The notes under the pieces were generated by a model. The model saw nothing but the letters and a program-made list of their open reading frames with translations, was not told the DNA's origin and ran no database searches. Below, piece after piece: positions 184 through 16,199 of a stretch of DNA of 16,507 nucleotides. A program made the position numbers and the translations under genes. The stretch is from IMG/VR virus record IMGVR_UViG_2740892442_000006; one strand, given 5' to 3'. How positions within the stretch are numbered: position 1 is the stretch's first letter; each line of letters begins with the position of its first letter. The stretch is from a virus (taxonomy: Duplodnaviria > Heunggongvirae > Uroviricota > Caudoviricetes).

Positions 184-218
184 CTGACAGTCCGCTCTGT
201 GCCAGAAGCGGACGTTAG
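184..218. repeat. Palindromic repeat, copy 1 (internal hairpin GTCCGCT-N10-AGCGGAC)
   Basis: Read directly: CTGACAGTCCGCTCTGTGCCAGAAGCGGACGTTAG. The 7-bp arms at 190-196 and 207-213 are exact reverse complements. An inverted copy lies at 4194-4228 and a partial direct copy at 3007-3023. Confidence 0.7.
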
Positions 219-434: not shown

Positions 435-1487
435 ATGAAACTAAAAAAAATGCTTGAAATGGATTTCATCAAGGAGTTTCAAGAGCACCTAGAAACTGAC
501 TTTGAGCATGAACTCTTACATGCCAGTCTTCGCAACTATTGTTCTCATGGTAATCCTCTGCGCTTCAACAACTTTGCATTTGCAATACGTGAGCTAATAA
601 ATCATGTGCTGAAACGACTGGCACCAAATGACAGAGTTATGGCGTCTCCATGGTTCACTAAAAACAAAAATAACGCCACTGTTACCCGTAAACAGCAAGC
701 AAAATACATCGCCCAGAAGCATATACCCGATCAACTTCTTGATGATGTAGCTATCGAAAGACTAGATGATGGTATAGCATGGTTCAATAAAAACTATTCT
801 TCTTTAAACGATTACACCCATATTAGCGAACATTCATTTGATAGTAACCCCAAACAGTTTTTTGAGAGTGCTAAACTAATAATAGAACTGTGTAACATAA
901 TATTCGATACCTTCGATGAACTTGAGCGTGTTATTACCGAATCAATAATCGAGGAAGTACAGAATGAAGTTACTGACATCACAATGAATAATATCCCTGA
1001 CGAACTGGATATATTATCTTCACAAACAACTGTTGATTGGTGCAATGTTGAATCCATTGAGTTGCTGAACCTTGACGAAAATTATATTTATCTTTTGGTG
1101 CGCGGAATAGTTGAAATTACTAGGCAATACGGGCGTGGTGAGGATTACTTTGCACAGCAAGATTCTTATCCCTTCAAGTTTGCAGTCTCTATTCGCACTG
1201 ATAATTTCAATTTAATAGCACCATTACTTAACACTGTAGTAGTGGATACAGGCTCATGGTATGACGATGGCGAAGGATCTGCTCATTATGACACAATTTA
1301 TACAACCTCCAGATTTTTGGAGATGATCTCACATATAAAAATTAAACCAAAAACAAAGAGAAGATTGTTTCCTGAGCTTAGTACAGTAGTAACACTAGGG
1401 ATTCATGAAAGTGAAGGTATATCAGAATCGGTCGTCCCAGAAATATGTCATCTAAATCAAGGAAGCTTCAATTTAACTGAATTTTAG
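435..1487 (+). CDS. Hypothetical protein (cargo ORF A, 350 aa); no family recognised; contains an R-x4-H motif (RNYCSH, residues 33-38)
   Basis: Long ORF with an ATG start and a weak AGG upstream; first gene of a co-directional cluster in the AT-rich island. No ATPase or other catalytic signature recognised. Confidence 0.75.
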   Translation: MKLKKMLEMDFIKEFQEHLETDFEHELLHASLRNYCSHGNPLRFNNFAFAIRELINHVLKRLAPNDRVMASPWFTKNKNNATVTRKQQAKYIAQKHIPDQLLDDVAIERLDDGIAWFNKNYSSLNDYTHISEHSFDSNPKQFFESAKLIIELCNIIFDTFDELERVITESIIEEVQNEVTDITMNNIPDELDILSSQTTVDWCNVESIELLNLDENYIYLLVRGIVEITRQYGRGEDYFAQQDSYPFKFAVSIRTDNFNLIAPLLNTVVVDTGSWYDDGEGSAHYDTIYTTSRFLEMISHIKIKPKTKRRLFPELSTVVTLGIHESEGISESVVPEICHLNQGSFNLTEF

Positions 1488-1503: not shown

Positions 1504-2442
1504 ATGAAAATGTCTAATAAGATCTATAGCCTACAAAGAATGCCTACTGAAGCATTTAAGATATTTGCAATGTCATTGCCACATGGGCCTAATTATGGTA
1601 ATGCGGAATTACTTTCCGCTTGGTCAAATGAAAAAGGGCTTGGATATGGTGCAGTCCTTCAATACAGCAAAAATTCATATGGCCTTGTTGTGCTCAGGCG
1701 ACGGGAAGATTATGTGCTGGTACCTCTCGAGCATGAGATGTGTTTTACCGAGCAGGAGGCATTGGTGCATCTTGATAAGCACCTTTCAGCCGGAGGAGAT
1801 TTATTACCGATTCCATCTGGGCAATCACGTAGAGCCCGACTGGATCATGTTGGTGAGCGGAATGTTTGTCAGGCATTTATACAATTATCGTCCACGATAA
1901 AGTACCGAGGAGCATTTCATTTAATTGTCGAGCTCTATCTGGCATTACCAAAACCTGATGATAACTTCAGAACCGATCTCCAGACCCAAGGATTCAACTC
2001 TAGAATCTGGGAGCTATACCTTTTCGCATGTTTTAAAGAGCAGGGAATTAAAGTTTTTCAAGATTATCCATCTCCGGATTTTATGCTCATGAACGGTAAT
2101 AACAAAGCATATGTTGAGGCGGTCACCGCGAATCCAACTGGTCCGGGCAGCCTAAAGTTGCCTCAAACACAATTCCCCCCCGGAGATCGATTAGCTCGCA
2201 CAGCAGGTGATATGGCAGCACGGTTCGCTAAGACCATCAGATCTAAACTCCAGAGAAAGTATGAAGAACTACCGCATGTTAAAGGATTTCCATTTGCAAT
2301 CGCTATAGCGGATTTTAGCGGTGGGGGCACTATGGTCTGGTCTCGCGAGTCACTTCCAACCTATTTGTATGGGCAAACCGCACATACAGTCAAAACATCC
2401 AAAGGTATGAAGCTGCTGCATTATCAATTGAAAAGCTTTTAG
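1504..2442 (+). CDS. Hypothetical protein (cargo ORF B, 312 aa); family unknown
   Basis: ATG at 1504 preceded by GGAGAG at 1496-1501, 16 bp after the ORF A stop. The downstream frame-0 ORF overlaps its 3' end, so B and C may be one gene split by a frameshift. Confidence 0.75.
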   Translation: MKMSNKIYSLQRMPTEAFKIFAMSLPHGPNYGNAELLSAWSNEKGLGYGAVLQYSKNSYGLVVLRRREDYVLVPLEHEMCFTEQEALVHLDKHLSAGGDLLPIPSGQSRRARLDHVGERNVCQAFIQLSSTIKYRGAFHLIVELYLALPKPDDNFRTDLQTQGFNSRIWELYLFACFKEQGIKVFQDYPSPDFMLMNGNNKAYVEAVTANPTGPGSLKLPQTQFPPGDRLARTAGDMAARFAKTIRSKLQRKYEELPHVKGFPFAIAIADFSGGGTMVWSRESLPTYLYGQTAHTVKTSKGMKLLHYQLKSF

Positions 2443-2504: not shown

Positions 2505-2903
2505 TTGTTTAGTAATGCTGGAACATTGCCAAAATTCCAGCGAATGGCAATCCAAGCTGAATTTTCCTCACCTATTGTGAAAGCCCGCAGGGTTGGGATT
2601 TTATTTGATAGGACTGAAGGGGCCTTGGAACCAATTGACTTCGATCTAGATATTCAATCGCCTGAATATATTAATCTTTGCGATGGCAAAGAATTTTGGT
2701 GTTTTGAACTTGAAGTATTTCATAACCCTAATGCTGCTTATCCAATGTCCCATGATTTCCTGCCGGGGGCAACACATTGGTTTGAACACAATGGAGAGAT
2801 CATCTGTGAGACCCAATGGAAAAACCAGGTACTTGCATCAGTAACCGAGTTTAGTATTGTTCCAGATGTCGCCGATAAACTCAAAGCCAAGGAAAAGCCG
2901 TGA
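2505..2903 (+). CDS. Hypothetical protein (cargo ORF C, 132 aa as listed); possibly the C-terminal continuation of ORF B
   Basis: The frame is open from 2319 and reads like protein (...YEAAALSIEKLLGHVNIPAGLFNHPEIENLSAILF...), but has no ATG/GTG/TTG before the TTG at 2505 and no convincing Shine-Dalgarno before 2505 or the ATG at 2544. Confidence 0.5.
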   Translation: MFSNAGTLPKFQRMAIQAEFSSPIVKARRVGILFDRTEGALEPIDFDLDIQSPEYINLCDGKEFWCFELEVFHNPNAAYPMSHDFLPGATHWFEHNGEIICETQWKNQVLASVTEFSIVPDVADKLKAKEKP

Positions 2904-3006
2904 TTGCTTGATGCAAGCATATTCTTGAAAGAAGAAAATTGACAAGATTTAAAACTAATAATGAAGGGGGGAATGTTACGAGGTTGTCAGGGCTGCAACA
3001 GCAGCC

Positions 3007-3023
3007 CTGTGTCAGAAGCGGAC
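3007..3023. repeat. Partial direct copy of the palindromic repeat (CTGTGTCAGAAGCGGAC), just after an 8-bp-stem hairpin at 2988-3009
   Basis: 16 of 17 bases match copy 1 at 197-213. Hairpin CAGGGCTG-caacag-CAGCCCTG read directly. Sits between ORF C and the ORF at 3080. Confidence 0.6.
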
Positions 3024-3079
3024 ATTTTAAGCATTCGAGTGTAAGGTCTGTTTTTTAATTTGTAATTTTAGGAGGTAAC

Positions 3080-4033
3080 ATGCCAAAGAAAAGACGGTCT
3101 ATTAGCCAGGTAAAAGAAGACATTTCAATCAGGGTTCTGCGGGAAAAACTACCTCGCGAATGGGTCGTACATAGCTATGGCGCTGACTATGGTATTGATT
3201 GCGTTGTTGAATTATTTGATTTTATTGATGACAGTGAAAGTATTGCAGAAACCCTTGGTGAAAACTTCTTTGTACAACTAAAATCTTCAGATTGTATTGA
3301 ATATTGTACACGTAAAGCCTATGCTCGTGGAAATGTAACCAAAGGAAAGTTAACAGAAGATAAAAGCGATTTTGTCGAAATCCCTGTCGCAAAATTCAAG
3401 TTAGATATATCAGACATTTTGACTGTTCAGTCTATAGGTATTGCAATTCCAGTATTATTGATACTAGTTGACACTAATACAGAAAAGGCATTTTTTATTT
3501 GCCTTAATGATTACATAGATAAAGTTCTCATACCAGAAGACCCGAATTATTCTAAAAAAGACTCAAAGACTATATATATACCTCTTGAAAATGAAATTCT
3601 GGATGATGAAGATGCGCTTGTTCCATTACGTGCATATGGTAAAAGATCAAAAATGTATGGCGCATTCTCACTTTTTAACTATCAATTAAAAGAAATAAAC
3701 CGATTACAAGGTAAAGCGGCCGTACAATTTCCTGTCTCTTTCGATGAAGCTATAGAGATGGTAAATAACTTTATTGTAATTGCTCTTAGACAAGATATAT
3801 GGTCTGGTCATGAATTTTGGAAGCCGATGGTATCGAGCCAAAAGGAGTTGATCCAACTTCAAATAGATATTGATAAAGAGGTAAAACCTGAACATTATGA
3901 ACATTTTTTGAGTTACTGTTCCGAAGTGGTTTGGCATAAGTTAACAAATCTTTCAAATATGTATGAGGAGCTTGTTAGAGAATGGTTCATGCCAACCTTG
4001 CTAGCGACATTAACATCAGCCCGCCCTAAATAA
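3080..4033 (+). CDS. Hypothetical protein (cargo ORF D, 317 aa) with an N-terminal PD-(D/E)xK-like nuclease-fold motif candidate (DUF4365-like by recollection)
   Basis: Strong RBS AGGAGGT at 3068-3074, six nt before the ATG. N-terminal motifs in order: DYGID, VVELFDF, FVQLKSS, consistent with a D...E...QxK restriction-endonuclease-like core. Family assignment is from memory, not a search. Confidence 0.8.
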   Translation: MPKKRRSISQVKEDISIRVLREKLPREWVVHSYGADYGIDCVVELFDFIDDSESIAETLGENFFVQLKSSDCIEYCTRKAYARGNVTKGKLTEDKSDFVEIPVAKFKLDISDILTVQSIGIAIPVLLILVDTNTEKAFFICLNDYIDKVLIPEDPNYSKKDSKTIYIPLENEILDDEDALVPLRAYGKRSKMYGAFSLFNYQLKEINRLQGKAAVQFPVSFDEAIEMVNNFIVIALRQDIWSGHEFWKPMVSSQKELIQLQIDIDKEVKPEHYEHFLSYCSEVVWHKLTNLSNMYEELVREWFMPTLLATLTSARPK

Positions 4034-4193
4034 TAATAGCAATGCTACGCAAAAGCATCCTAGCCCTAAATTCTTAAATAAGGGCTTCATATCAAATTGA
4101 AGCCTTTGTGAACAATAGAAACAACACTAAAAGACACCCCTATCACATTTAGTTGAATAGAAAAATAATAATGCGCCCACGACGATACAATTA

Positions 4194-4228
4194 CTAACGT
4201 CCGCTCCTCGCTCAAAGCAGACTGTCAG
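4194..4228. repeat. Palindromic repeat, copy 3, inverted relative to copy 1
   Basis: The reverse complement of 4194-4228 matches 184-218 at about 30 of 35 positions, by hand alignment. A further ACTGTCAG motif lies at 4253-4260. Confidence 0.65.
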
Positions 4229-4293
4229 ATTTGATTGCATTTTGCCTACGCAAACTGTCAGTTCGAGCCTGAGCTAATACAGCTAACTGGATG

Positions 4294-5397
4294 TTAGCCT
4301 TTTTTAATTTTATTTTTAGATTGTTCAATGTGATGATTTAACACTTCTCTCTTTGCCTCTTCATAGGTTAGCTCTCCATTGATTACCTTATTTTTTATTT
4401 CATTAAAAAATGAGGAGCCTTTGGGATCTTTACTTGATAAAAAAAGACTGGCTTCAGCTCTCCGAAAAGCTTCTTTCCTTGCTTCTATAGAAAATGAATT
4501 AGCAGGGTTATTTTTGTTCATAAGTTGAAGTGCCTTATTATTTATATTCGGGATGTTTTTATCTACAAGAGTTAGTCTTAACTCCGAGAATTTATTTCCT
4601 GATATTTTATAACACTGATTTTCATTTTTTTCAATATAAAGAGATTTGCTTTCTGCGCTACCACATGTCGTAGATGTTCTTGCATCAAGAAAAATAAACT
4701 TTTCTTGAAATCTTTCAATATATTTCATTGCTGTCATGCTAATAATAAAAAGAGCAACTGACACAGCAAAAAGGGATAAGCCTGATACTAAACGATTAAA
4801 ATTAAATTTCCTTTTAATAACTAATGAACTGGCTAGATTGACCATGTTATAGGGGACCATAATTATGAGTCCTATTAATATTATTTTTTCAGGAAGATTG
4901 TTCACTTGTATATGATGTTGAGCCAAGTTTCCAATATATACTGAAATCATAGAGGATATTACTATTTTTGCTGGGGATACATCTCGCAAAAATATGTATA
5001 TATAGACTGTAGTTGCACAAATCATTGCTCCTATTGGAAATGAGAGCATGAAAGCATAAGCTAATGTTGAGTAATTAAGATTTTCTGGGGCTATACCATA
5101 AGCTATGTCAAGCTTAAACTTTGCGATCCATAAGCATACTGAATATGTAAAGCCAGTTACGCCCCACTTAACCACTGTATTATTAAATACTTTATTTAAT
5201 AAATCACGATATCCTATGTATACACTGGTTAATAAAGCTATAGATGATAGAAAAATTGGAGCGGCAATGTATATATTTTCTAGCCATAATGGGTTTTCTA
5301 CAATCAAGTATCCAAAAGGTATTAAGTATATTATAGCCAATAGTTGAGGGTTGTTTAATTTGGATGATGCGTCAACCAAATTATTTTTATATTCCAT
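4294..5397 (-). CDS. Multi-pass inner-membrane protein (about seven hydrophobic segments in the N-terminal ~225 aa, then a ~140-aa charged soluble C-terminal domain); function unknown
   Basis: 367-aa ORF with AGGA about 7 nt upstream of the ATG. Starts 9 bp after the stop of the integrase at 5407-6480, on the same strand. Very AT-rich. Confidence 0.8.
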   Translation of the reverse strand: MEYKNNLVDASSKLNNPQLLAIIYLIPFGYLIVENPLWLENIYIAAPIFLSSIALLTSVYIGYRDLLNKVFNNTVVKWGVTGFTYSVCLWIAKFKLDIAYGIAPENLNYSTLAYAFMLSFPIGAMICATTVYIYIFLRDVSPAKIVISSMISVYIGNLAQHHIQVNNLPEKIILIGLIIMVPYNMVNLASSLVIKRKFNFNRLVSGLSLFAVSVALFIISMTAMKYIERFQEKFIFLDARTSTTCGSAESKSLYIEKNENQCYKISGNKFSELRLTLVDKNIPNINNKALQLMNKNNPANSFSIEARKEAFRRAEASLFLSSKDPKGSSFFNEIKNKVINGELTYEEAKREVLNHHIEQSKNKIKKG

Positions 5398-5406
5398 ATA
5401 ACGTCC

Positions 5407-6480
5407 TTATTTCAACTTTAACGCCAAATCTTCAGCTTTTGGATGATAATACCGCATTAGCATTCTTGGATCTTTATGTCCTGTAATTTTGGTCAGTTCA
5501 TGCATAGGGAAAATTTCAGCAAGTCGAGAAGTTGCTTCATGTCGAAGGTCATGAAATCTTAAATCTTTAAGGAATGATTCATCACATAATGAGTTTGTTT
5601 TCTCGTATCGTTCTCTGGCTCGTTTTACAGCTCGGTCAAAAGCTCGGGTAATCGCGTCTGCACGCATATCAAAAACCTTATCAGCAGCTGGCTTAGAATG
5701 TTCCTTGAGACTGGACAGTATCGTGATGGCTTTCGTTGATAAAGGGACATCGCGGGCATTACCATTCTTAGTATCCGGCAGATGTGCAACTCGCCGATCA
5801 AGATCGATAAAGCGCCATCGAAGATCTGCGATTTCGCTACGGCGCATGGCTGTCTCTAACGCCAGAAGAATGATTGCTGGCAATACTAATGAATGTGTTG
5901 CGGCGATGATATGTTCGATCTCGTTGGCTATTTCCTTTCCTGACGTAACACCGGTTTTCTCAGAAACTACAGGCAGCGCTTCCAGGCGTCTGGTCCTGGA
6001 GTTCTTGGGTTGAGGTTTGCGAATGGCCTCTACGGGGTTCAGCAGGCTCTCCATGCCCCATTCTTTCCGCGAAACGTTGAATACATGAGAAAGTAAGGCC
6101 AAACGCCTTAAAACGGTTGCAGGGGCATAGATTTTCAACCATTCATCTCTCAGCTTGGCGACATCGGCACTCCTGATGCTGGCCATATAGTTTTTCGCCA
6201 GCTGAGTGCCTTTTAGTATCCGCACCAATGATTGGTCTTGCACTGCCCCTTTTTTGTCGGGAACAATCTCTTTTTCATATCGCGTTAGGGCTTCATACAA
6301 TGTCGTAGATTCCGCTTCGCTGCGGCTAAGCCAAACTCCTCTCGCCATTTCTGACTCGATCATTTTGGCCCAAGCTTCTGCTTCTACTTTGGTGTTAAAG
6401 GTTTTGGTTTGAGAGGGAAAACCTCGTTTACGGATTTGAGCTTCCCATTGGTAGTTACCACGTTTGCGTATAGTCGCCAT
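5407..6480 (-). CDS. int: Tyrosine-type site-specific integrase (island integrase)
   Basis: C-terminal catalytic signature FHDLRHEATS...MRYYHP (H-x-x-R-H box and tyrosine). The ORF track starts at a TTG at 6510; the ATG at 6480 (MATIRKRGNYQWEAQIRKRG...) is the more likely start. Confidence 0.9.
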   Translation of the reverse strand: MATIRKRGNYQWEAQIRKRGFPSQTKTFNTKVEAEAWAKMIESEMARGVWLSRSEAESTTLYEALTRYEKEIVPDKKGAVQDQSLVRILKGTQLAKNYMASIRSADVAKLRDEWLKIYAPATVLRRLALLSHVFNVSRKEWGMESLLNPVEAIRKPQPKNSRTRRLEALPVVSEKTGVTSGKEIANEIEHIIAATHSLVLPAIILLALETAMRRSEIADLRWRFIDLDRRVAHLPDTKNGNARDVPLSTKAITILSSLKEHSKPAADKVFDMRADAITRAFDRAVKRARERYEKTNSLCDESFLKDLRFHDLRHEATSRLAEIFPMHELTKITGHKDPRMLMRYYHPKAEDLALKLK

Positions 6481-6568
6481 TTCTGTCTGATTCCTAACGA
6501 ACTGTGGCAATATTGTGGCAAAAAATCCATTTAAATTCGATAGGTATTGATTTTACAAGATCAATTTA

Positions 6569-6617
6569 CGCATTCGTAATGCGAAGGTCGTAGGTTCGAC
6601 TCCTATTATCGGCACCA
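6569..6617 (+). tRNA. 3'-terminal 49-nt fragment of tRNA-Thr (anticodon CGU); not a complete tRNA; likely an att-core direct-repeat copy
   Basis: Anticodon stem-loop with CGT at 6575-6577, T-arm GGTTCGACTCC, 3' acceptor strand and CCA. Matches the 3' part of enterobacterial thrW as I recall it. The upstream sequence has no 5' acceptor strand (GCCGATA) or D-arm. Confidence 0.8.
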
Positions 6618-6631
6618 TTTAAATCAATAAG

Positions 6632-7795
6632 TTACACATCATTAGTACCTTCCTTATTTTTTGACTGGGACAAATTTGGGACCGATGGGTTCAGGATCGA
6701 GTCTATTTGCCGTGCGTGTTCGGTAAGGTGATTAGGTGCAAGGTGAGCATATCGACGAACCATTTCGATAGACTCCCACCCTCCCATTTCCTGTAACACT
6801 GACAACGGGACTCCGGCTTGAACCAGCCAACTTGCCCAGGTGTGTCTCAAGTCGTGAAATCTGAAATCATCAATACCAGCCCGTCTCAGCGCCGCTTTCC
6901 AGGCTGTGTTTGCGTCATACCGCATCTTCCTTACTGTTGGCGCTTTCGTTCCGTCTGGTTTGGTACAGCTTTCCTTGTACACAAATACCCAACGGTGATG
7001 ATTCCCGATTTGTTTTTTCAATACGCGACATGCAGTATCATTCAGCGCAACGCCAATTGCGCGGTTTGATTTACTCTCTTCCGGGTTTATCCATGCCACC
7101 CGGCGCTGCATATCTATTTGTTGCCATTCAAGGTTGATGATGTTCGAGCGTCTTAAACCTGTTGCCAGTGCAAATTCAACAACAGACTTTAATGGCTCCG
7201 GACATTCATCAATCAGCCTTTGTGCTTCATGGGGCTCCAGCCAGCGGATCCGTTTATTCTTTGGTTGAGGCACTTTAATAATTGGTGCCTTATCCAGCAT
7301 TTTCCATTCACGCTCTGCGGCTCTTAGTAGGGCCTTTATAAATGAAAGATGCGTAGCCTTCGTTGCAACGGACGCTGGTTTTGGCGTGTATTCTGGAACA
7401 GGTTTCCCTTTTTTTCTGCATGCTTCTGCCCTGAGTTTCCAGTTTTCCTCATGACGCCGGTTCGTCATTTTCTGCATTGCTGAATAAATTTTTGATTCAG
7501 TAATGTCTCTTAGTTGCATTCCTGCGAAATGTTGAAGCCAGAATCCGATCCGGCTTTTGTCATCGTCCAGTGATTTTTTATGTGCTTTCTCTTCAAGCCA
7601 CCTGACACACGCTTCCTCGAACGTTATATCAGGTATTTCACCAAGTTTGCTGACCCGCCATGCTTCAGCCTTTAGCTTGTCATGGAGTTCTGTCGCCTGC
7701 CTTTTGTCCTTTGTTCCAAGAGACTGTTTAAATCTTTTACCGTTCGGCAATGTGAAACTGGCGTACCATATTTCACCTCTGCGGAAGAGTGACAT
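6632..7795 (-). CDS. int: Lambdoid (P22/SfV/e14-type) phage integrase
   Basis: N-terminus [34 protein letters not shown] is typical of this enterobacterial prophage integrase group; catalytic [10 protein letters not shown]...VRRYAHL. GAGGAA RBS. The 3' end lies 15 bp from the tRNA-Thr fragment. Confidence 0.92.
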
Positions 7796-8022
7796 TTTCT
7801 TTCCTCTGTTATGCCATCACCCGCGCTCACCTGGACAGTATGCAGCGGAGACTGAAGAGCCGCAATGCAGGCTTGTCGTGTTGTGAGGTAAGGAGATTTA
7901 TTCTTAGTGGGATCTTTGCGTGTTGCCTGAAGACGCCCTGTGCGTATCCAGTTAATGGCAGTCGGTCTGGATATCTTGAGAAAATGACAGGCCTCATCGA
8001 GTGTGAGGCTGTATGGCTCCAT
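7672..8022 (-). CDS. xis: Excisionase / AlpA-like HTH protein (about 117 aa from the ATG at 8022)
   Basis: [31 protein letters not shown] is a helix-turn-helix excisionase-like N-terminus. The ATG overlaps the upstream stop (ATGA). The 3' end overlaps the integrase start by about 124 bp in another frame, so the true stop is uncertain. Confidence 0.6.
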
Positions 8023-8327
8023 TATTTCACCTCTTGCTGTGACATTGTTGAAAAATGGATACCAGCTCGTTGCTGCCAGACGATCCAACCGAGAGTCATA
8101 TCCCATGCCATGTATTCGTTATCGCCGTTTTTTGCTCTCCGACGATCTACTAAGTCACCGAAACGCTTTTCCATGAATAATTCATAAGCTTCGCGTTCAT
8201 CTGGTTCTACTTCCAGCGATAGGAGTGCGATTTCATAAGCACGGCGCTCAATATCGTCTCGCACGTCAAGGCTGCTGATACGCTCTTTAATTTCTTTAAT
8301 CAGTTCTTTGTCGGTAAAAGTGATCAT
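8022..8327 (-). CDS. Hypothetical prophage early protein (101 aa)
   Basis: Coding-like codon usage; start overlaps the upstream stop (TAATG) and its stop overlaps the xis start, indicating one coupled operon. Confidence 0.65.
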   Translation of the reverse strand: MITFTDKELIKEIKERISSLDVRDDIERRAYEIALLSLEVEPDEREAYELFMEKRFGDLVDRRRAKNGDNEYMAWDMTLGWIVWQQRAGIHFSTMSQQEVK

Positions 8328-8689
8328 TATGCTCCAGCCTCCGGTGCTTTTGGCATTATTGCCCAGTGAGTGATATTGACGTTTTCAAGGTCCCCGACCT
8401 GAAATGTCCACTGCCATTCTCCGGTTTCTTTTTGTCCCCAGGTGTACCAGAGAGAACGCCTGCCAATTAGCCAGCCTTCTCCGTTAGCATCGAATAACAA
8501 AACACTTTCATTTGCTGGTGGCAGTTCAGCTGACACTGGTATTACTTTGTTTTCCTGTGCTGCACATTTAGCTTCAAGCGCATCGAATTTACGCACCAGG
8601 TATTCAGCATCTGTTTCATTTACTTTCAGATCTCGCGGTACACATCTCCCACGAAGAAACCCTTCCATTTCGAAAACATTCATGCGCAT
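8327..8689 (-). CDS. Hypothetical prophage early protein (120 aa)
   Basis: ORF in the same minus-strand operon, overlapping both neighbours by a few bases. Confidence 0.65.
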   Translation of the reverse strand: MRMNVFEMEGFLRGRCVPRDLKVNETDAEYLVRKFDALEAKCAAQENKVIPVSAELPPANESVLLFDANGEGWLIGRRSLWYTWGQKETGEWQWTFQVGDLENVNITHWAIMPKAPEAGA

Positions 8690-9243
8690 TTGCGTAACTC
8701 CGATAACTCGTTAAAACGTTCCATAAACATCCCGTAGGCATGGCCCGGTGCCTGTGGAATCACTTTGAACATCTCTGTTGCCGGGATACCTTCCAGTACA
8801 GGCCAGAAAGAGCCATCATCAAGCCCGAGATCGCGGCGTTCGGTTGCCAGCATAATGAGATCGGCATATTTCACTGGCGTGCTCATAACAGGAGGTAACC
8901 CGTATTTCTCACGTATTACGGCGTCTATTTTTTCTTCCATCCGTTTATAGTCAGGAAGAAGTCGTTTCAGTGGTGCGGGGATGTCCTGGCAATATGCTTC
9001 TGTTGCATCATGCATTAAAGCTTCAAAAGCAAATTCCTGTGGCACCAGCTGGCTGCAAAGCACCGCATGTTGGGCGACACTGTAGAAGTGTGAAAGATGT
9101 CCTGCAAAGCGACAGATATTTGAAAGGGAAACCGCGATATCGTTAATAACGATGTCGTCTTTATTTATCCTGTCATAATAAAAATGCTTCCCGGAAAAAG
9201 TTTTAATAAATGACATTTTGTTCTCCACGTATATGCGCTGCAC
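8680..9243 (-). CDS. HD-domain phosphohydrolase (YfdR-like, as found in enterobacterial prophages)
   Basis: Ordered H...HD motifs (SVAQHAVLCSQL then ALMHDATEAY) in a protein of about 187 aa; first gene of the leftward operon ending in xis and int. Confidence 0.65.
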   Translation of the reverse strand: MQRIYVENKMSFIKTFSGKHFYYDRINKDDIVINDIAVSLSNICRFAGHLSHFYSVAQHAVLCSQLVPQEFAFEALMHDATEAYCQDIPAPLKRLLPDYKRMEEKIDAVIREKYGLPPVMSTPVKYADLIMLATERRDLGLDDGSFWPVLEGIPATEMFKVIPQAPGHAYGMFMERFNELSELRKCA

Positions 9244-9340
9244 CGCGCTGAATTCGGGTAAAAGGAAGCCCTCACCGTCCGGCGATTATTGAGTCAATTA
9301 CATTTCCATAAATGCCCCCGTAGGGCGGTTAGTTTCTCCA

Positions 9341-9427
9341 CAAAACAGAGAAGAACACCTGCGGTGGCAGCCGCCCGGATGGATTGGGTTATGAGCCCGT
9401 CGTCCGGTGATGCTCTTCTCTGTTTTG
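9341..9427. repeat. Inverted repeat: 17-bp arms (CAAAACAGAGAAGAACA at 9341-9357 and its complement at 9411-9427, one mismatch) around a 53-bp spacer
   Basis: Read directly, in the 435-bp region between the divergent minus-strand and plus-strand prophage operons. Confidence 0.7.
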
Positions 9428-9473
9428 TAAAAAGGACGGTATCCGCCTGACGGCTAATCAGGCATATCACCAG

Positions 9474-9677
9474 ATGGTGAAGCTGGGGATCGTCGAGCAG
9501 CGCGAACGATACAGCCGTACCGCGATTAACAACATCAAAAAATTCTGGTCGCTGACAGCGAAAGGCTGCATGTTCGGCAAGAACATCACCAGTCCTGCAA
9601 ATCCGCGCGAGACGCAGCCGCATTTCTTCGAATCCCGATTCCCTGAGCTGTTAAAGCTGCTCGATACCGTTCATTGA
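9474..9677 (+). CDS. Possible small ORF (67 aa) just upstream of the DUF968-like gene
   Basis: ATG start, coding-like third-position bias, stop 1 bp before the next gene; no recognisable family. Competes with a minus-strand ORF that I rejected. Confidence 0.3.
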   Translation: MVKLGIVEQRERYSRTAINNIKKFWSLTAKGCMFGKNITSPANPRETQPHFFESRFPELLKLLDTVH

Positions 9678-9678
9678 G

Positions 9679-10674
9679 GTGACCGTGAGAGCACTACTGA
9701 CCCCTGAAATAGCCCCGCGTATGGGGATCGTATTGTTCAGACCCGGTTCAGAGCTGATGCCCCTGTTTATGCAGGGGCGTGTCCTGCTGGAGCCTGAGCC
9801 GGAACGTTATTCATCTTTCGCCAGTGGTGCCGTTCCCGCGGCATCACAACCGCTGGCGGATGATCCTGCCGTTCGAGCCGTGTTCTGCAATGAGGCAGTG
9901 ATCCGTCGTGCTGGTGGCGTGGAATGTCTTGAAAGCTGGTTACTTCGTGAAAAGGGCTGTCAGTGGCCTCATTCCGACTGGCACAGCGAGAACATGACCA
10001 CAATGCGACACGCGCCGGGCGCGATCCGTCTGTGCTGGCACTGCGATAACCAGCTGCGCGATCAGTTCACGGAACGGCTGGAATCAATGGCAACGGATAA
10101 CTGTGCCCGCTGGGTGTTGTCTGTTGTGCGTCGGGATCTCGGTTTTGATGACAGTCACGTTGTGACAATGCCGGAACTGTGCTGGTGGCTGATTCGTAAT
10201 GACCTGGCGGATGCCTTACCGGAAAGTGCAGCCCGTAAGGCACTGAGATTACCGAAGCCTGTTGTGCCGTCTGTCACCCGGGAAAGTGACCTTGTGCCTT
10301 CGGTTCCTGCCACCAGCATCATCCAGGATAAGGCGAAAAAGGTGCTGGCGCTGAAAGTGGATCCGGAGTCGCCGGAGTCTTTTATGTTACGCCCAAAACG
10401 TCGCCGCTGGGTTAATGAAAAGTACACGCGCTGGGTTAAGACACAGCCGTGTGCATGTTGTGGAAAGCCTGCTGATGATCCCCACCACCTGATAGGCCAC
10501 GGTCAGGGTGGGATGGGTACAAAAGCGCATGACCTCTTTGTGTTGCCTTTGTGCAGAAAGCATCACGACGAGCTGCATGCGGATACCGTGGCATTTGAAG
10601 AGAAGTATGGCTCCCAGCTGGAGCTGATATTTCGTTTTATCGATCGTGCGCTGGCAATAGGCGTACTGGCGTAA
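9679..10674 (+). CDS. Prophage protein with a C-terminal HNH-like Cys/His cluster (DUF968-like)
   Basis: 331-aa ORF with a GTG start. C-terminus CACCGKPADDPHHLIGHGQGG...CRKHHDELH is a zinc-finger/HNH-type signature. Sits immediately upstream of Q, as in the nin region of lambdoid phages. Confidence 0.65.
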   Translation: MTVRALLTPEIAPRMGIVLFRPGSELMPLFMQGRVLLEPEPERYSSFASGAVPAASQPLADDPAVRAVFCNEAVIRRAGGVECLESWLLREKGCQWPHSDWHSENMTTMRHAPGAIRLCWHCDNQLRDQFTERLESMATDNCARWVLSVVRRDLGFDDSHVVTMPELCWWLIRNDLADALPESAARKALRLPKPVVPSVTRESDLVPSVPATSIIQDKAKKVLALKVDPESPESFMLRPKRRRWVNEKYTRWVKTQPCACCGKPADDPHHLIGHGQGGMGTKAHDLFVLPLCRKHHDELHADTVAFEEKYGSQLELIFRFIDRALAIGVLA

Positions 10675-10687
10675 GTGGAGAACGAGC

Positions 10688-11416
10688 ATGAACCTTGAAG
10701 CTTTACCAAAATATTACTCCCCAAAATCTCCAAAATTGAGTGATGACGCACCGGCGACAGGCTCGGGTGGTTTAACAATTACAGATGTGATGGCTGCGCA
10801 GGGGATGGTGCAGTCGAAAGCACCGCTTGGGTTTGCCTTATTCCTGGCAAAAGTTGGTGTTCAGGATCCTCAGTTTGCGATTGAAGGTCTGCTCAATTAC
10901 GCGATGGCACTGGATAACCCGACATTGAACAAATTGAGTGAAGAAATCCGGTTACAGATCATCCCTTACCTTGTGAATTTTGCCTTTGCTGATTATTCCA
11001 GGTCTGCGGCAAGTAAGGCTCGCTGTGAGCATTGTGCTGGTACTGGATTTCATAATGTATTGCGCGAGGTGGTGAAACACTCCAGAAGCGGGGAATCTGT
11101 TATCAAGGAAGAGTGGGTGAAGGAACTATGTCAGCATTGTCATGGTAAGGGAGAAGTCAGCACAGCGTGCAGAGGGTGTAAGGGTAAAGGTATTGTCCTG
11201 GATGAAAAAAGGACCCGGCTTCATGGCACGCCTGTTTATAAGATTTGTGGGCGTTGCAATGGAAACCGATTTAGCCGTTTACCAACCACACTGGCGCGGA
11301 ATCATGTCCAGAAGCTGGTACCAGACCTGCCGAAGATCTGGGAAAAGTCACTTTCCGCCCGTCCATCACGGCTTATGTGGTGGGAGATGACTGCTTTGAC
11401 CAGCGCGATCGCCTGA
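10688..11416 (+). CDS. Q: Late-gene antiterminator Q homolog (lambda Q family); C-terminus probably altered by a deletion junction
   Basis: N-terminus MNLEALPKYYSPKSPKLSDD...TDVMAAQGM parallels lambda Q as I recall it, followed by CxxCxGxG zinc-finger repeats. The last ~30 codons overlap an N-like reading frame. Confidence 0.75.
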   Translation: MNLEALPKYYSPKSPKLSDDAPATGSGGLTITDVMAAQGMVQSKAPLGFALFLAKVGVQDPQFAIEGLLNYAMALDNPTLNKLSEEIRLQIIPYLVNFAFADYSRSAASKARCEHCAGTGFHNVLREVVKHSRSGESVIKEEWVKELCQHCHGKGEVSTACRGCKGKGIVLDEKRTRLHGTPVYKICGRCNGNRFSRLPTTLARNHVQKLVPDLPKIWEKSLSARPSRLMWWEMTALTSAIA

Positions 11417-12531
11417 TTGACGCGCTGAATAAACCCGGTCCCGGCACGCTTGTCCACCCGACATACGGTGAGTTGAAAGTCTGTGTTGACGGGGAAGTTC
11501 GGGTCAGCACATCGAAGAGTGAAGGGCGTATTGTCCGCTTTGACCTGAAGTTTGTCGAAGCGGGAGATCTCTCTTACCCCACATCAGGCGTGGCGACGGC
11601 GCAGACGCTGATGTCATCCTGTTCTGCACTGGATGACTGCATCAGTGACAGCTTCAGCGGTTTCAGTATCGATGGCGTGGCAGATTTTGTGCAGAACGAC
11701 GTCGTCGGTAATGTCGGCACAATGCTTGGGTATGTTTCTGATGCGATGAAAGTGGTGGATTCTGCCGTATCGGATGCCGCCAGGCTGTTGCAGGGGGATA
11801 TCTCGGTACTTCTTCCGCCGCCATCGTCAGGCAAAAATTTCGTTGAGCAGGTGCAGAAAATGTGGCGTACCGGGAAACGCCTTTATGGTAACGCCAGCGA
11901 CCTGGTCACCATGATCAAAACGCTTTCCGGTGTCAGCCTTGGCAGCGATCTGCAACCGCGCGGCGTCTGGAAAACGGACAGTAAAACCACCGCCACGGCG
12001 ACGCAGCAGCGTAACGTGGTTGCCAGCACCCTTCGTACGACCGCAATCAGCGAAGCGGCGTATGTCGTCACACGATTGCCTGCGCCCACAACTTCCGCGG
12101 TGATGCAGAATGCCACAGTGGGGCAGTCAACAACACCCGCGCAGAGCACCGGCTGGCCTTCTGTCACGCATCCGGCACTGAACAATGCACCGGCGGTGAA
12201 AAACACGGTTGACCTGCCAACGTGGGAAGAACTGACCGACATTCGCGACACACTGAATACGGCAATTGATAAGGAGTTGTCCCGTACAACCAGTGATGCG
12301 CTGTTTCTGGTGCTGCGCCGGGTGAAAGCAGATCTGAATGCGGATATCAACACGCGCCTTGAACAGTCTGCACGGATCATTCAGCGCACGCCGGATGAGG
12401 TTTTACCCGCGCTGGTGCTGGCGGCGACCTGGTTTGATAACGCGGCGCGTGACGCGGACATTATCCGGCGTAATGCCATTACGCATCCCGGCTTTGTGCC
12501 GGTGATCCCTCTGAAGGTGCCAGTGCAATGA
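11377..12531 (+). pseudogene. Mu gp43 (N)-like DNA circularization / tail protein, 5'-truncated
   Basis: Similar in length and position to Mu N, but about 100 residues shorter than I recall for the family. The frame is open from 11275 and overlaps the Q 3' end. GTG start only. Stop overlaps the next start (ATGA). Confidence 0.6.
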
Positions 12532-13606
12532 ACGACAATGTCACGCTACGGGTAAATGGCCGGGAGTGGAATGGCTGGACATCGGTGCGCATCGGTGCCG
12601 GTATTGAACGGCTGGCGCGGGATTTCAGTGTGGAGATCACCCGCCAGTGGCCGGGAGATGAGGGTATCACCACGCTTCAGCCGCGCATTAAAAACGGTTC
12701 AAAAGTGGAAGTGCTGATTGGTGATGAGCTGGTGATCACCGGCTGGGTGGAGGCGACGCCCGTTCGTTACGATGCCCGTTCGGTCAGCACCGGTATTGCC
12801 GGACGTAGTCTGACGGCTGACCTGATTGACTGTGCAGCCGAACCGACACAGTTTAACGGACGCTCGCTGGTGCAGATTGCGCAGGCGCTTGCTGCGCCTT
12901 TCGGCATTGAGGTGGTGAACAGCGGTGCGCCGTCGGGTGTTATTCCTGATGTTCAGCCTGATCACGGTGAAACGGTGATTGAGGTAATAAACAAAATACT
13001 CGGTCAGCAGCAGGCGCTGGCTTACGACGACCCGCACGGCAGGCTGGTGATTGGCGGTATTGGCTCAACGCGGCACATACCGCGCTGGTACTTGGGGAAA
13101 ACATCCTTTCCTGCGATACGGAGAAGAGTATCCGGGAGCGGTTTTCTGTTTACCAGGTGGCGGGGCAGCGTGCCGGAAACGACGATGATTTCGGTGAGGT
13201 CACCACCACCGCGCTGCGGGCCCGCACAGAGGACGCATTTATTGCCCGTTACCGTCCGATGTATATCAGGCAGACAGGGCAGGCCACGGGGGCAGGCTGT
13301 ATTGCGCGTGCTGACTTTGAAGCCCGACAACGGGCGGCGCGGACGGATGAAACCACCTATGTGGTGCAGGGCTGGCGACAGGGTAACGGTACGCTGTGGC
13401 AGCCCAACCAGCGGGTGATTGTCTTTGATCCGGTCTGTGGTTTCGACAATACCGAACTGCTTGTCTCGGAAGTCACGTTTACTCAGGACCAGAACGGCAC
13501 CCTGACGGAAATCCGTGTCGGCCCGCCTGATGCTTATCTGCCTGAACCCGAAGCCCCCGGCGCGCGGAAAAAGAAAAAAGCCAGAGTACAGGAGGACCCG
13601 TTCTGA
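12528..13606 (+). pseudogene. Mu gp44 (P)-like baseplate hub / tail protein, interrupted by a frameshift near 13065-13080
   Basis: Frame 0 (12528-13418) and frame 2 (open upstream of 13157, to 13606) each read like protein: ...GGIGSTRH then ...TALVLGENILSCDTEKSIRERFSVYQVAGQ... The combined length of about 359 aa fits the family. Confidence 0.6.
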
Positions 13607-14154
13607 TGAGGACGATTGAAGCCATGCAGCGACAACTTCTCGGCCTGATTGCGCGGGCAGTGGTGAAAAGCATCAGTGCCGCCACGAAATGTCAGACCGT
13701 GGATGTGTCCCTGATTGCCGGTGAACCCAAAGCCGGGGTTGAACATCTTGAACCCTACGGTTTTACCGCAAGGGCAAACAGCGGCGCGGAAGCGGTGGTG
13801 TTGTTTCCGGATGGCGACCGTTCTCATGCGGTGGTTGTTACGGTGTCGGACCGGCGCTACCGCCTGAAAGGGTTGCAGACGGGTGAGGTGGCTGTCTATG
13901 ACGATCAGGGGCAGTCTGTGACGCTGACCCGGGAGGGGATCGTGGTGGACGGTGCAGGTAAAACGATCACGTTTCGCAATTCACCTAAAGCACGTTTTGA
14001 AATGGACCTGGAAGTGACAGGACAGGTGAAAGACCTGTGCGACTCCAGCGGCACTACCATGTCAGCGATGCGGCTTGCCTATAACGGGCATCGTCACAGA
14101 GAGAACGGTCAGGGCAGTAACACCGACAAACCGGATAAAGCGATGGAGGCATGA
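13606..14154 (+). CDS. Mu gp45-like baseplate assembly / spike protein (gpV-like)
   Basis: About 182 aa, translationally coupled to its neighbours (TGATG upstream, ATGA downstream); position and size match a Mu-type baseplate module. Confidence 0.65.
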   Translation: MRTIEAMQRQLLGLIARAVVKSISAATKCQTVDVSLIAGEPKAGVEHLEPYGFTARANSGAEAVVLFPDGDRSHAVVVTVSDRRYRLKGLQTGEVAVYDDQGQSVTLTREGIVVDGAGKTITFRNSPKARFEMDLEVTGQVKDLCDSSGTTMSAMRLAYNGHRHRENGQGSNTDKPDKAMEA

Positions 14155-14579
14155 TGGAACTGTGGCTGACGGTGAACGGTAAACGCACCTGCGCCAGCGC
14201 ACCGCTGGATCCGCTGACCCGCGCCGTGGTGATTTCCCTGTTTACCTGGCGGCGGGCGGAGCCTGATGACAACGCCGACGTCCCGATGGGATGGTGGGGG
14301 GATACCTGGCCTGCGGTACAGAATGACCGTTACGGCTCCCGACTGTGGCTGCTTCAGCGCAGCAAACTGACCAATCAGCTGGTGCAGACAGTAAGGGGGT
14401 ATATCCGCGAATGCCTGCAATGGATGATTGATGACGGCGTGGTGTCCCGTATTGATCTGGATATCCGCCGCACCGGGATTAATGAGCTGGGTAACAGTAT
14501 CACCCTCTGGCGTCGTGACGGACCGGTAATGATTTCTTTTGATGATCTGTGGAGTGCGATAACGCATGGCGGACAGTGA
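14151..14579 (+). CDS. Mu gp46-like baseplate protein
   Basis: About 142 aa, overlapping both neighbours; order gp45-gp46-gp47-gp48 is conserved. Confidence 0.65.
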   Translation: MMELWLTVNGKRTCASAPLDPLTRAVVISLFTWRRAEPDDNADVPMGWWGDTWPAVQNDRYGSRLWLLQRSKLTNQLVQTVRGYIRECLQWMIDDGVVSRIDLDIRRTGINELGNSITLWRRDGPVMISFDDLWSAITHGGQ

Positions 14580-15624
14580 ATTTCAGCGCCCGACGCTGGC
14601 AGAAAATATCAGTATGCTCCGTAACGATTTATTCGCCAGGCTGGACGTCAGCGACACGCTCCGGCGCATGGATGAAGACGTGCGGGCAAAGGTGTATGCG
14701 GCGGCGCTGCATACGGTTTACGGGTACATCGATTATCTGGCAATGAACATGCTGCCTGACCTGTGCGATGAGTCCTGGCTGGCGCGACATGCTGCGATGA
14801 AACGGTGTCCGCGCAAGGGGGCCACGGCTGCCAGCGGGTATATGCGTTGGGAAGGTGTCAGCGATGGCCTGAAGGTGACCGCCGGGAGTGTTATTCAGCG
14901 CGATGACCTGGTTCAGTACACGGCAACTGCCGATGCAACCAGCTCCGGTGGTGTCCTGCGCGTGCCGATCGCCTGCTCAAGTGCAGGCGCGGTCGGTAAC
15001 GCTGACGACGGTACGTCATTAATCCTGGTCACGCCGGTTAATGGTCTGCCGTCTTCCGGCGTGGCAGATACCCTTACAGGCGGATTTGATACTGAAGAGC
15101 TGGAAACGTGGCGCGCCCGCGTCATTGAGCGGTATTACTGGACGCCTCAGGGCGGGGCTGACGGGGACTATGTCGTCTGGGCTAAAGAAGTGCCCGGCAT
15201 TACCCGCGCATGGACATACCGTCACTGGATGGGAACGGGAACTGTCGGTGTGATGATTGCCAGCAGTGACCTGATTAATCCCATTCCGGAAGAATCAACG
15301 GAAACGGCAGCAAGACAACATATCGGGCCACTGGCCCCGGTGGCAGGCTCTGATTTGTATGTATTCAGGCCGGTGGCACATACGGTGGATTTTCATATCC
15401 GCGTGACGCCGGACACACCGGAAATACGGGCTGCCATTACCGCGGAGTTGCGTTCGTTCCTGCTGCGTGATGGTTATCCGCAGGGAGAACTGAAGGTATC
15501 GCGTATCAGTGAGGCGATTTCCGGTGCGAACGGGGAATACAGCCATCAGTTGCTTGCACCGGTGGACAATATCTCCATTGCGAAAAACGAACTGGCGGTA
15601 CTGGGGACGATTTCATGGACGTGA
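14566..15624 (+). CDS. Baseplate J-like protein (Mu gp47 / e14 JayE-like)
   Basis: About 352 aa, in the expected position between the gp46-like and gp48-like genes. Confidence 0.7.
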
Positions 15625-16199
15625 CAAACGATGATTACATCCGCCTGTTATCGGCACTGTTGCCGCCCGGTCCGGCGTGGTCAGCCAGCGATCCGGCGAT
15701 TGCCGGTGCGGCACCGTCATTAACCCGTGTTCATCAGCGTGCGGATGCCCTGATGCGGGAGCTGGATCCGCGCACCACCACTGAACTGATAAACCGCTGG
15801 GAGCGTCTGTGCGGTCTGCCGGATGAATGTATTCCGGCGGGAACGCAGACCCTTCGCCAGCGTCAGCAACGGCTGGATGCGAAGGTTAACCTGGCGGGCG
15901 GCATCAACGAGGATTTTTATCTTGCACAGCTTGCTGCCCTGGGCAGACCAGATGCCACCATCACGCGATACGACAAAAGCACGTTCACCTGCTCATCGGC
16001 CTGTACTGACGCGGTGAATGCGCCGGAATGGCGGTATTACTGGCAGGTCAACATGCCAGCCGCCACCAACACCACCTGGATGACATGTGGCGATCCCTGT
16101 GATTCCGCACTGCGTATCTGGGGTGACACCGTTGTCGAGTGTGTGCTTAACAAACTCTGCCCGTCGCATACCTACGTAATTTTTAAATATCCGGAGTAA
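15615..16199 (+). CDS. Mu gp48-like tail protein (DUF2313 / YmfQ-like)
   Basis: About 194 aa; N-terminus [23 protein letters not shown] resembles the YmfQ family as I recall it; immediately precedes the tail fiber gene. Confidence 0.65.

Follow-up and report, generated by a model that had tools for sequence, protein, structure and literature searches.

A DUF4365 nuclease joined to a family-specific helical domain is a candidate single-gene, Argonaute-independent defense protein carried as a mobile cassette

The window analyzed here, a 16,507-nucleotide stretch of a Caudoviricetes virus record (IMG/VR IMGVR_UViG_2740892442_000006), carries on its plus strand an open reading frame (ORF) at 3080..4033 whose 317-residue product joins an N-terminal DUF4365 domain to a helical C-terminal domain found only in this family. 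DUF4365 is the DREN nuclease of SPARDA, as proven by experiment (bioRxiv 10.1101/2023.06.08.544223; PMC10810196), and DREN has so far been understood only as the output of guide-directed Argonaute filaments. We favor, at a probability of roughly 0.55, the reading that the protein is a self-contained, single-gene nuclease defense that would act independently of Argonaute and whose activity would be gated by its C-terminal domain. The counterpart of the gene in Escherichia coli TUM10008 is RefSeq WP_001724239.1, which is named only as a 'DUF4365 domain-containing protein'. The gene and its parts are located as follows.

3080–4033, plus strand: coding sequence (ATG start, 317 aa) of the DUF4365 (DREN-like) nuclease with family-specific helical C-terminal domain (ORF call, Pfam)
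3116–3613, plus strand: Pfam DUF4365 envelope, residues 13–178, PD-(D/E)xK alpha/beta nuclease domain (E 2.8e-15)
3185–3211, plus strand: D36-Y-G-I-D40-x3-E44, the DxGxD(x3)E acidic part of the predicted active site (97 % conserved in 69 homologs)
3260–3283, plus strand: E61...Q66-L-K68, the QxK part of the predicted active site (E61 98 %, Q66 97 %, K68 100 %)
3608–4030, plus strand: five-helix C-terminal domain, residues 177–317 (predicted structure, alignment)

An earlier reading of the DNA, the original prediction, had listed the motifs DYGID, VVELFDF and FVQLKSS in that order near the N-terminus and noted a resemblance to DUF4365. The motifs do lie in that order, at residues 36–40, 42–48 and 64–70, and the resemblance is confirmed: Pfam family PF14280 matches with an E-value of 2.8e-15 and a score of 57 bits, against a gathering cut-off of 24.3, and is likewise matched by 69 of 70 members of the protein family. 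The domain spans about residues 8–176. Of the PD-(D/E)xK assignment that accompanied these motifs, the fold stands, on the evidence of Pfam, the predicted structure and Foldseek matches, while a literal (D/E)xK third motif does not, the residues in question being Q66-L-K68; QxK is the usual form of this motif in DUF4365 (PMC10810196, PMC11297309). Across 69 full-length homologs, at 30–98 % identity, D36, G38, D40, E44, E61, Q66 and K68 are conserved at 97–100 %, far beyond chance, and D47 and S70 vary. The homologs thus retain the acidic and lysine residues whose loss had been named as evidence against a nuclease.

The AlphaFold model of the protein (predicted local distance difference test score, pLDDT, 83.5; predicted TM-score, pTM, 0.76) has a restriction-endonuclease-like alpha/beta fold at the N-terminus, and the non-nuclease fold that the original prediction had proposed to look for there was not what the model gave. 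Its top Foldseek matches in the PDB are the DREN-APAZ chains of SPARDA (9qcc_A at E 3.4e-5, also 9vx6 and 9jt2), followed by RecU/PrfA, Hjc and D212; the homing endonuclease I-Ssp6803I was also matched, and in a viral structure library the N-terminal domain alone was matched. The alignments to the DREN-APAZ chains cover 135–200 columns of chains of 387–416 residues, with target-normalized TM-scores of 0.21–0.29; these lengths are consistent with a match confined to the nuclease domain, the aligned residue ranges not being part of the output. The mapping of catalytic residues rests on fold and motif, since HMMER gives no sequence link to the solved DREN chains; sequence matches to other PDB entries (Snf1 kinase, Spc97) were dismissed as chance. 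Taken together, motif and model indicate that the protein is very probably a DUF4365/DREN-type metal-dependent PD-(D/E)xK nuclease with a predicted active site of D36/D40/E44, E61 and Q66-x-K68.

Beyond the nuclease domain, the original prediction had left some 240 residues unassigned; with the nuclease domain reaching from about residue 8 to about residue 176, the remainder is nearer 140. This C-terminal domain is less conserved than the nuclease domain (mean identity 35 % vs 46 %), and has 15 positions that are at least 90 % conserved, among them an invariant set of K188, R189, K191, F196, D239, W241, W285, E296, E301 and P305. Searches with up to 70 members gave no meaningful sequence matches to it in Pfam, PHROG, NCBIfam or the PDB. 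In fold searches it matches up-down helical bundles of a generic kind (designed bundles, the CheA P1 domain, FliS), with HEPN toxins at similar scores. A HEPN RNase, suggested by an Rx4-6H-type motif (R237-QDIWSG-H244), was ruled out, as neither R237 nor H244 is conserved. An exhaustive search of 1.84 billion representative proteins with a profile of the C-terminal domain only returned 208 clusters, of which the full-length ones are nearly all 300–360 residues long with the domain at about 175–330. As nearly all clusters share this one architecture, the domain is not a portable sensor carried by other effectors and is found only fused to a DUF4365 nuclease. Because it is exclusive to one architecture and has conserved positions of its own, it may be an integral regulator, and we propose a regulatory, sensor or oligomerization role for it.

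The gene was described in the original prediction as having its own upstream region with a repeat copy. That copy is genuine: positions 3004–3026 repeat 194–216 at 87 % identity and form the 3′ half of a palindrome that recurs at the edges of the cargo, here termed the junction element.

184–218, plus strand: junction element, left copy, imperfect palindrome GTCCGCT-N9-AGCGGAC; left edge of the whole cargo (repeat search)
2981–3026, plus strand: junction element, middle copy; left edge of the 1.2-kb DUF4365 module (repeat and strain comparison)
4194–4228, minus strand: junction element, right copy (CTGACAGTCTGCTTTGAGCGAGGAGCGGACGTTAG); right edge of the module and of the whole cargo (repeat search)
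Copies elsewhere: 2501–2543 of locus L087; 9902–9950 and 8179–8205 of locus L003; also in loci L088, L089 and L090

The middle copy consists of a 9-bp hairpin at 2988–3009 and a core, CTGTGTCAGAAGCGGAC, at 3007–3023, and the outer copies are the core of an inverted repeat of about 95 nt (131–225 and 4187–4281) that brackets the whole cargo. Comparison with other strains places breakpoints at these positions. Homology to E. coli CT282, in which the Shedu protein SduA occupies the identical slot of the same integrative element, stops at window position 216 and restarts at 4200, within the element cores. Enterobacter adelaidei (98.4 %) and E. coli A134_1EC (97.5 %) share solely window positions 2981–4218, a stretch that runs from the middle copy through the DUF4365 gene into the right copy, and their upstream genes differ. 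Both strains, and many further E. coli, encode a conserved tyrosine recombinase of about 200 residues, whose E. coli and Enterobacter versions are 92 % identical, and the stop codon of its gene is followed directly by the element. The cargo behind the recombinase and element varies: DUF4365, a 373-residue protein of unknown function, a kinase with FRG, or a TrlF-ATPase with PHP. Of 5,426 complete E. coli genomes, 214 contain the first 45 nt of the element and eight contain the full module. An element of about 35–45 nt, sometimes preceded by a separate 9-bp hairpin, was seen at every breakpoint between alternative cargo arrangements. From these sequence comparisons, the element looks like a recombinase-associated cassette-exchange site. 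Because 2981–4218 recurs alone amid different genes, the DUF4365 gene is a self-contained cassette; therefore, of the two alternatives that the original prediction had offered, a separate single-gene module is favored over an effector of the upstream genes.

The family at large was sampled as 80 genome loci, from which 69 full-length members were aligned, and the ORFs of 82 loci were clustered for the analysis of neighbors. The family comprises about 200 clusters at 50 % identity and is distributed patchily over more than ten phyla. A tight clade at 55–98 % identity extends across beta- and gamma-proteobacteria and cyanobacteria, and therefore indicates horizontal spread. The absence of an obvious partner, another claim of the original prediction, holds across the family: neither BLAST clustering of the 82 loci, in which the top neighbor cluster occurs in seven, nor Pfam and PADLOC summaries of the flanks revealed a conserved partner gene, and the 136 nearest substantial flanking genes match 131 different Pfam families. 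Integrases, transposases and parts of restriction–modification (R-M) systems are the most frequent neighbors, the commonest flanking Pfam families being phage integrase (5), ResIII (4), and SWI2/SNF2, type I specificity subunit and rve transposase (3 each).

Individual settings are those of mobile elements and defense islands. A homolog in Yersinia mollaretii, 85 % identical, lies just after the tail-fiber assembly gene of a P2-like prophage, at a position that we take to be the Z/fun accessory locus of P2. This locus has been named as a site of antiviral genes (PMC13586616). An identical protein in Pseudomonas occurs in two settings, one alongside a TraI relaxase and an integrase and the other near an OLD-like ATPase; the Anabaena copy is about 4 kb from an integrase; and full-length members are carried on plasmids of Bacillus, Pedobacter and Gluconobacter. 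On the Pedobacter plasmid the gene begins 20 bp past PDC-S46, with a type II R-M system alongside. Ancylobacter and Caulobacter share a 6.5-kb island, at 88.5 % nucleotide identity, that holds, in this order, PD-T7-1 (E 1e-120), a family member after a gap of 45–52 bp, and the Gabija gene gajB; PD-T7-1 and the family member each show about 34 % identity to the E. coli counterpart. The copies of this island are listed here.

8464–12852 of locus L046: Ancylobacter/Caulobacter island copy
8168–12681 of locus L056: Ancylobacter/Caulobacter island copy

A tblastn search of phage records gave no match to the family. Several copies are split by a frameshift or interrupted by an inserted gene (loci L067, L073, L074, L076 and L077), and an uncultured bacterium (L009) has two tandem paralogs of 326 and 345 residues, 836 bp apart. 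DUF4365 proteins of other architectures were also encountered. The Vibrio cholerae plasmid pW7G encodes one of 643 residues (L083, 2989–4920) near a SMEK-domain protein, and plasmids of Providencia, Proteus and Morganella encode one of 240 residues (L084, 2498–3220) 14 bp after a site-specific integrase, an arrangement kept on eight conjugative or mobilizable plasmids.

An anti-phage or other defense role is reasonably probable in light of this genomic context. In the mechanism that we propose, the C-terminal domain would keep the nuclease off until an infection-related cue is received, and so would stand in for APAZ and Argonaute as the gate, either by autoinhibition or by cue-driven oligomerization. 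Activation may proceed through oligomerization controlled by the C-terminal domain, by analogy with the D2 tetramer of SPARDA, although we regard gating by this route as tentative. The active enzyme would then cut DNA, and possibly RNA, indiscriminately; the resulting growth arrest or death would halt propagation of the phage or plasmid (abortive infection). The gene itself travels without a partner, as the 1.2-kb cassette 2981–4218, in the variable defense-cargo slot of an integrative element.

Several alternatives to a gated, single-gene defense were weighed. A nuclease of this type could be a solitary restriction endonuclease, modification-dependent or type IV-like, whose C-terminal domain binds DNA and which cuts directly, with no abortive or activation step. 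The lack of a methyltransferase partner, the invariant basic cluster K188/R189/K191 and the frequency of R-M neighbors fit such an enzyme. We nevertheless consider it unlikely: the C-terminal domain is a helical bundle with no fold match to a modified-base reader, the protein as a whole is acidic, and the DUF4365 nucleases characterized so far lack specificity and are toxic in the active state (PMC10810196, PMC11297309, PMC12205087). The fold likeness to Hjc, RecU and I-Ssp6803I raises a different prospect, namely a junction-resolving or homing endonuclease that serves the mobility of the cassette or island, perhaps at the palindromic element. Palindromic junction copies do bracket the gene, and its contexts are always mobile. 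The element, however, also borders unrelated cargo (Shedu, TrlF with PHP, kinase with FRG), it is tied to the tyrosine recombinase and not to the DUF4365 gene, and family members of other phyla sit in unrelated contexts, and the element is enterobacterial as far as seen; such a service role is accordingly quite improbable.

A similarly low probability attaches to a multi-gene system in which the protein would act as effector or subunit alongside the upstream cargo genes, one PD-T7-1-like and one for a pPIWI-associated nuclease. All are on the same strand and enclosed by one inverted repeat, and the position of PD-T7-1 45–52 bp upstream in the Ancylobacter/Caulobacter island, with both proteins about 34 % identical, repeats part of the arrangement. 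Against this, the module occurs without the upstream genes in Enterobacter, E. coli A134_1EC, Yersinia, Pseudomonas, Anabaena and about 60 other loci; a junction element and hairpin separate the PD-T7-1-like and DUF4365 genes; and in the window the former is frameshifted and the latter intact. PD-T7-1 is a single-gene system. It has been validated as a defense system by itself (PMC9519451). Least probable of all, and very much so, is a toxin, either of a toxin–antitoxin pair or delivered in the manner of EAT16. EAT16, with its DUF4365 N-terminus, kills E. coli (PMC11297309), and on the Bacillus plasmid the family member is followed, after about 420 bp, by a SocA-type antitoxin gene, but the family has no conserved small adjoining gene, secretion or injection genes are found neither in the window nor among the common neighbors, and the VbhA-like antitoxin gene downstream of the DUF4365 gene belongs to the island backbone, being present alongside Shedu as well.

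Some observations count against a self-contained, gated defense protein, and we set them out together. Neither PADLOC-DB 2.0 nor the NCBIfam models match the 317-residue protein, and the HMMER comparison with solved DREN chains noted above was negative. Its pI is 5.1. The fold matches of the C-terminal domain go no further than a generic four-helix bundle, which makes the sensor or oligomerizer role wholly conjectural. Some flanking genes in the family are housekeeping genes. PD-T7-1 lies directly upstream of a DUF4365 family gene in two independent lineages, leaving room for a functional link; this recurrent adjacency could be chance co-location in defense islands or such a link.

If the single-gene reading is true, a 317-residue protein with a private control domain would be a second, Argonaute-independent way to gate DREN, and would give a handle on what the C-terminal domain senses. 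About 200 clusters (50 % identity) from more than ten phyla, which PADLOC 2.0 and NCBIfam currently miss, would join the catalog of single-gene defenses. The junction element and its small recombinase may in addition explain the swapping of single-gene defenses between enterobacterial islands. A bolder version would cast the protein as an immune module of a new, one-protein kind: a DREN collateral nuclease that works independently of Argonaute, has as its C-terminal domain an undescribed infection sensor driving tetramerization, and spreads as a cassette at a recombinase-associated palindromic site, within an integron-like defense-cargo platform of the Enterobacteriaceae; taken as a whole, this version is doubtful.

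The expression signals of the gene and the rest of the window complete the description of the locus.

3070–3076, plus strand: Shine-Dalgarno sequence AGGAGGT, 3 nt 5′ of the ATG
4083–4104, unstranded: terminator-like hairpin between the convergent DUF4365 gene and ORF 4294..5397 (hairpin scan)

The original prediction had singled out AGGAGGT as the strongest ribosome-binding site of the region, and 3080..4033 is indeed the sole cargo ORF with a full Shine-Dalgarno sequence; no convincing sigma-70 promoter was found on the plus strand at 2904–3079 upstream of it. The gene had also been counted as the fourth cargo ORF. As a gene it is the third, since ORFs 1504..2442 and 2505..2903 belong to a single PD-T7-1-like gene, which is an unbroken 464-residue coding sequence in TUM10008 but is divided in the window by a 1-nt deletion at about 2411. 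Relative to that strain, the window has three 1-nt deletions in short homopolymers (at about 405, about 2411 and about 4532), one of which fuses the VbhA-like antitoxin gene with an adjacent hypothetical gene into ORF 4294..5397; they are either assembly errors or recent pseudogenization. The first cargo gene, 435..1487 on the plus strand, encodes a 'pPIWI-associating nuclease' (Pfam pP_pnuc_1 and pP_pnuc_2; PADLOC Aga_Nuclease, E 1.4e-58). Since no Argonaute or PIWI gene was found in the window, the cargo carries, Argonaute-free, two kinds of nuclease that elsewhere are known to partner an Argonaute.

No Rfam families or tRNAs were found in the window by Rfam and ARAGORN scans. Two integrase genes lie back to back on the minus strand, at 5407..6510 and 6632..7795, and the interval between them, 6511–6631, holds only the 3′ part of a tRNA, ending in ...GGTTCGACTCCTATTATCGGCACCA, which RefSeq annotates as a 112-nt 'tRNA-Ser' and which we take to be a truncated 3′ part of thrW; this fragment was probably left from an att site of tandem integrative elements. 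Prophage makes up the right two-thirds of the window, with genes at 7672..9243 (minus strand) and 9679..16199 (plus strand) and a GC content of 0.55–0.60, vs 0.30–0.44 in the island. The prophage includes yfdR-, yfdS- and yfdT-like genes, a gene for a DUF968 protein and baseplate genes. Several prophage genes are annotated as partial in TUM10008.

Among known systems, the DREN-APAZ proteins of SPARDA (NbaSPARDA, XauSPARDA, TmuRE-Ago) share with the 317-residue protein the DUF4365 domain, the DxGxD...QxK motif and a defense context, and are its best structural match. The corresponding residues have been probed in several proteins: a D41A/Q60A/K62A triple mutation inactivates NbaSPARDA (bioRxiv 10.1101/2023.06.08.544223), and Q62 and K64 are likely active-site residues of TmuRE, for which Q62A/K64A was made as an inactive control (PMC10810196). 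Isolated DREN is an inactive monomer whose collateral DNase and RNase activity requires assembly into a D2 tetramer along the Argonaute filament, and its tetramers resemble those of I-Ssp6803I (PMC12205087). The present protein differs in having no APAZ, its C-terminal 140 residues forming an all-helical bundle without a Pfam match, so that the nuclease is joined to an unrelated helical domain. No PIWI match, and hence no short Argonaute, was found in the seven window ORFs scanned or among the 25 most frequent neighbor Pfam families. A filament of Argonaute induced by guide and target cannot activate such a protein, and because APAZ and Argonaute are both missing in these comparisons, we place it as DREN-like but outside SPARDA.

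EAT16, an extracellular contractile injection system (eCIS) toxin of Photorhabdus, shares the N-terminal DUF4365 domain with its DxGxD...QxK motif (D42, D46, Q66 and K68), in which three of four single mutants lost toxicity (PMC11297309). It differs as injection-system cargo with another second domain, and the window contains no eCIS genes. Hjc, RecU and I-Ssp6803I are small, single-domain enzymes with structure or sequence specificity and are only 8–17 % identical to the protein, whose family has a patchy, mobile distribution and not a core one. A type II R-M system would have a cognate methyltransferase, and none adjoins the nuclease gene; the cargo has no methyltransferase, and DNA_methylase was matched by two of the 136 flanking genes across the family.

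The closest functional precedent, compared by its description, is Divona, a single-gene DUF4365 anti-phage protein encoded by a cassette of the V. cholerae chromosomal integron, probably VCA0374 (bioRxiv 10.1101/2024.07.02.601686; Darracq et al., also Science 2025). Of the nine systems that showed activity in V. cholerae in that work, every one except Nantosuelta gave lysis or growth arrest at high multiplicity of infection, and Divona homologs in E. coli were reported within 20 kb of integrases (bioRxiv 10.1101/2024.07.02.601686). Both proteins are encoded by single genes and have an N-terminal DUF4365 domain, and the integrase proximity in E. coli fits the locus at 3080..4033. The C-terminal part of Divona, in contrast, is described as Crr6 (PF08847)-like (bioRxiv 10.1101/2024.07.02.601686). 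In 100 scans (30 + 70), the C-terminal domain of the present family gave no Crr6/PF08847 signal at E <= 10, although the method of the Divona authors may be more sensitive. Because there is no such signal and the 80 family loci include no Vibrio or Aeromonas genome, it is somewhat unlikely that the two families are the same. The 643-residue pW7G and 240-residue Providencia proteins were ruled out as proxies for Divona on account of their other architectures.

Shedu SduA (DUF4263) provides a parallel within the same integrative element, as a single-gene PD-(D/E)xK nuclease defense that takes the same cargo slot in E. coli CT282. It belongs to a separate nuclease family and has a different, N-terminal regulatory domain, and the 317-residue protein has no PADLOC Shedu match.

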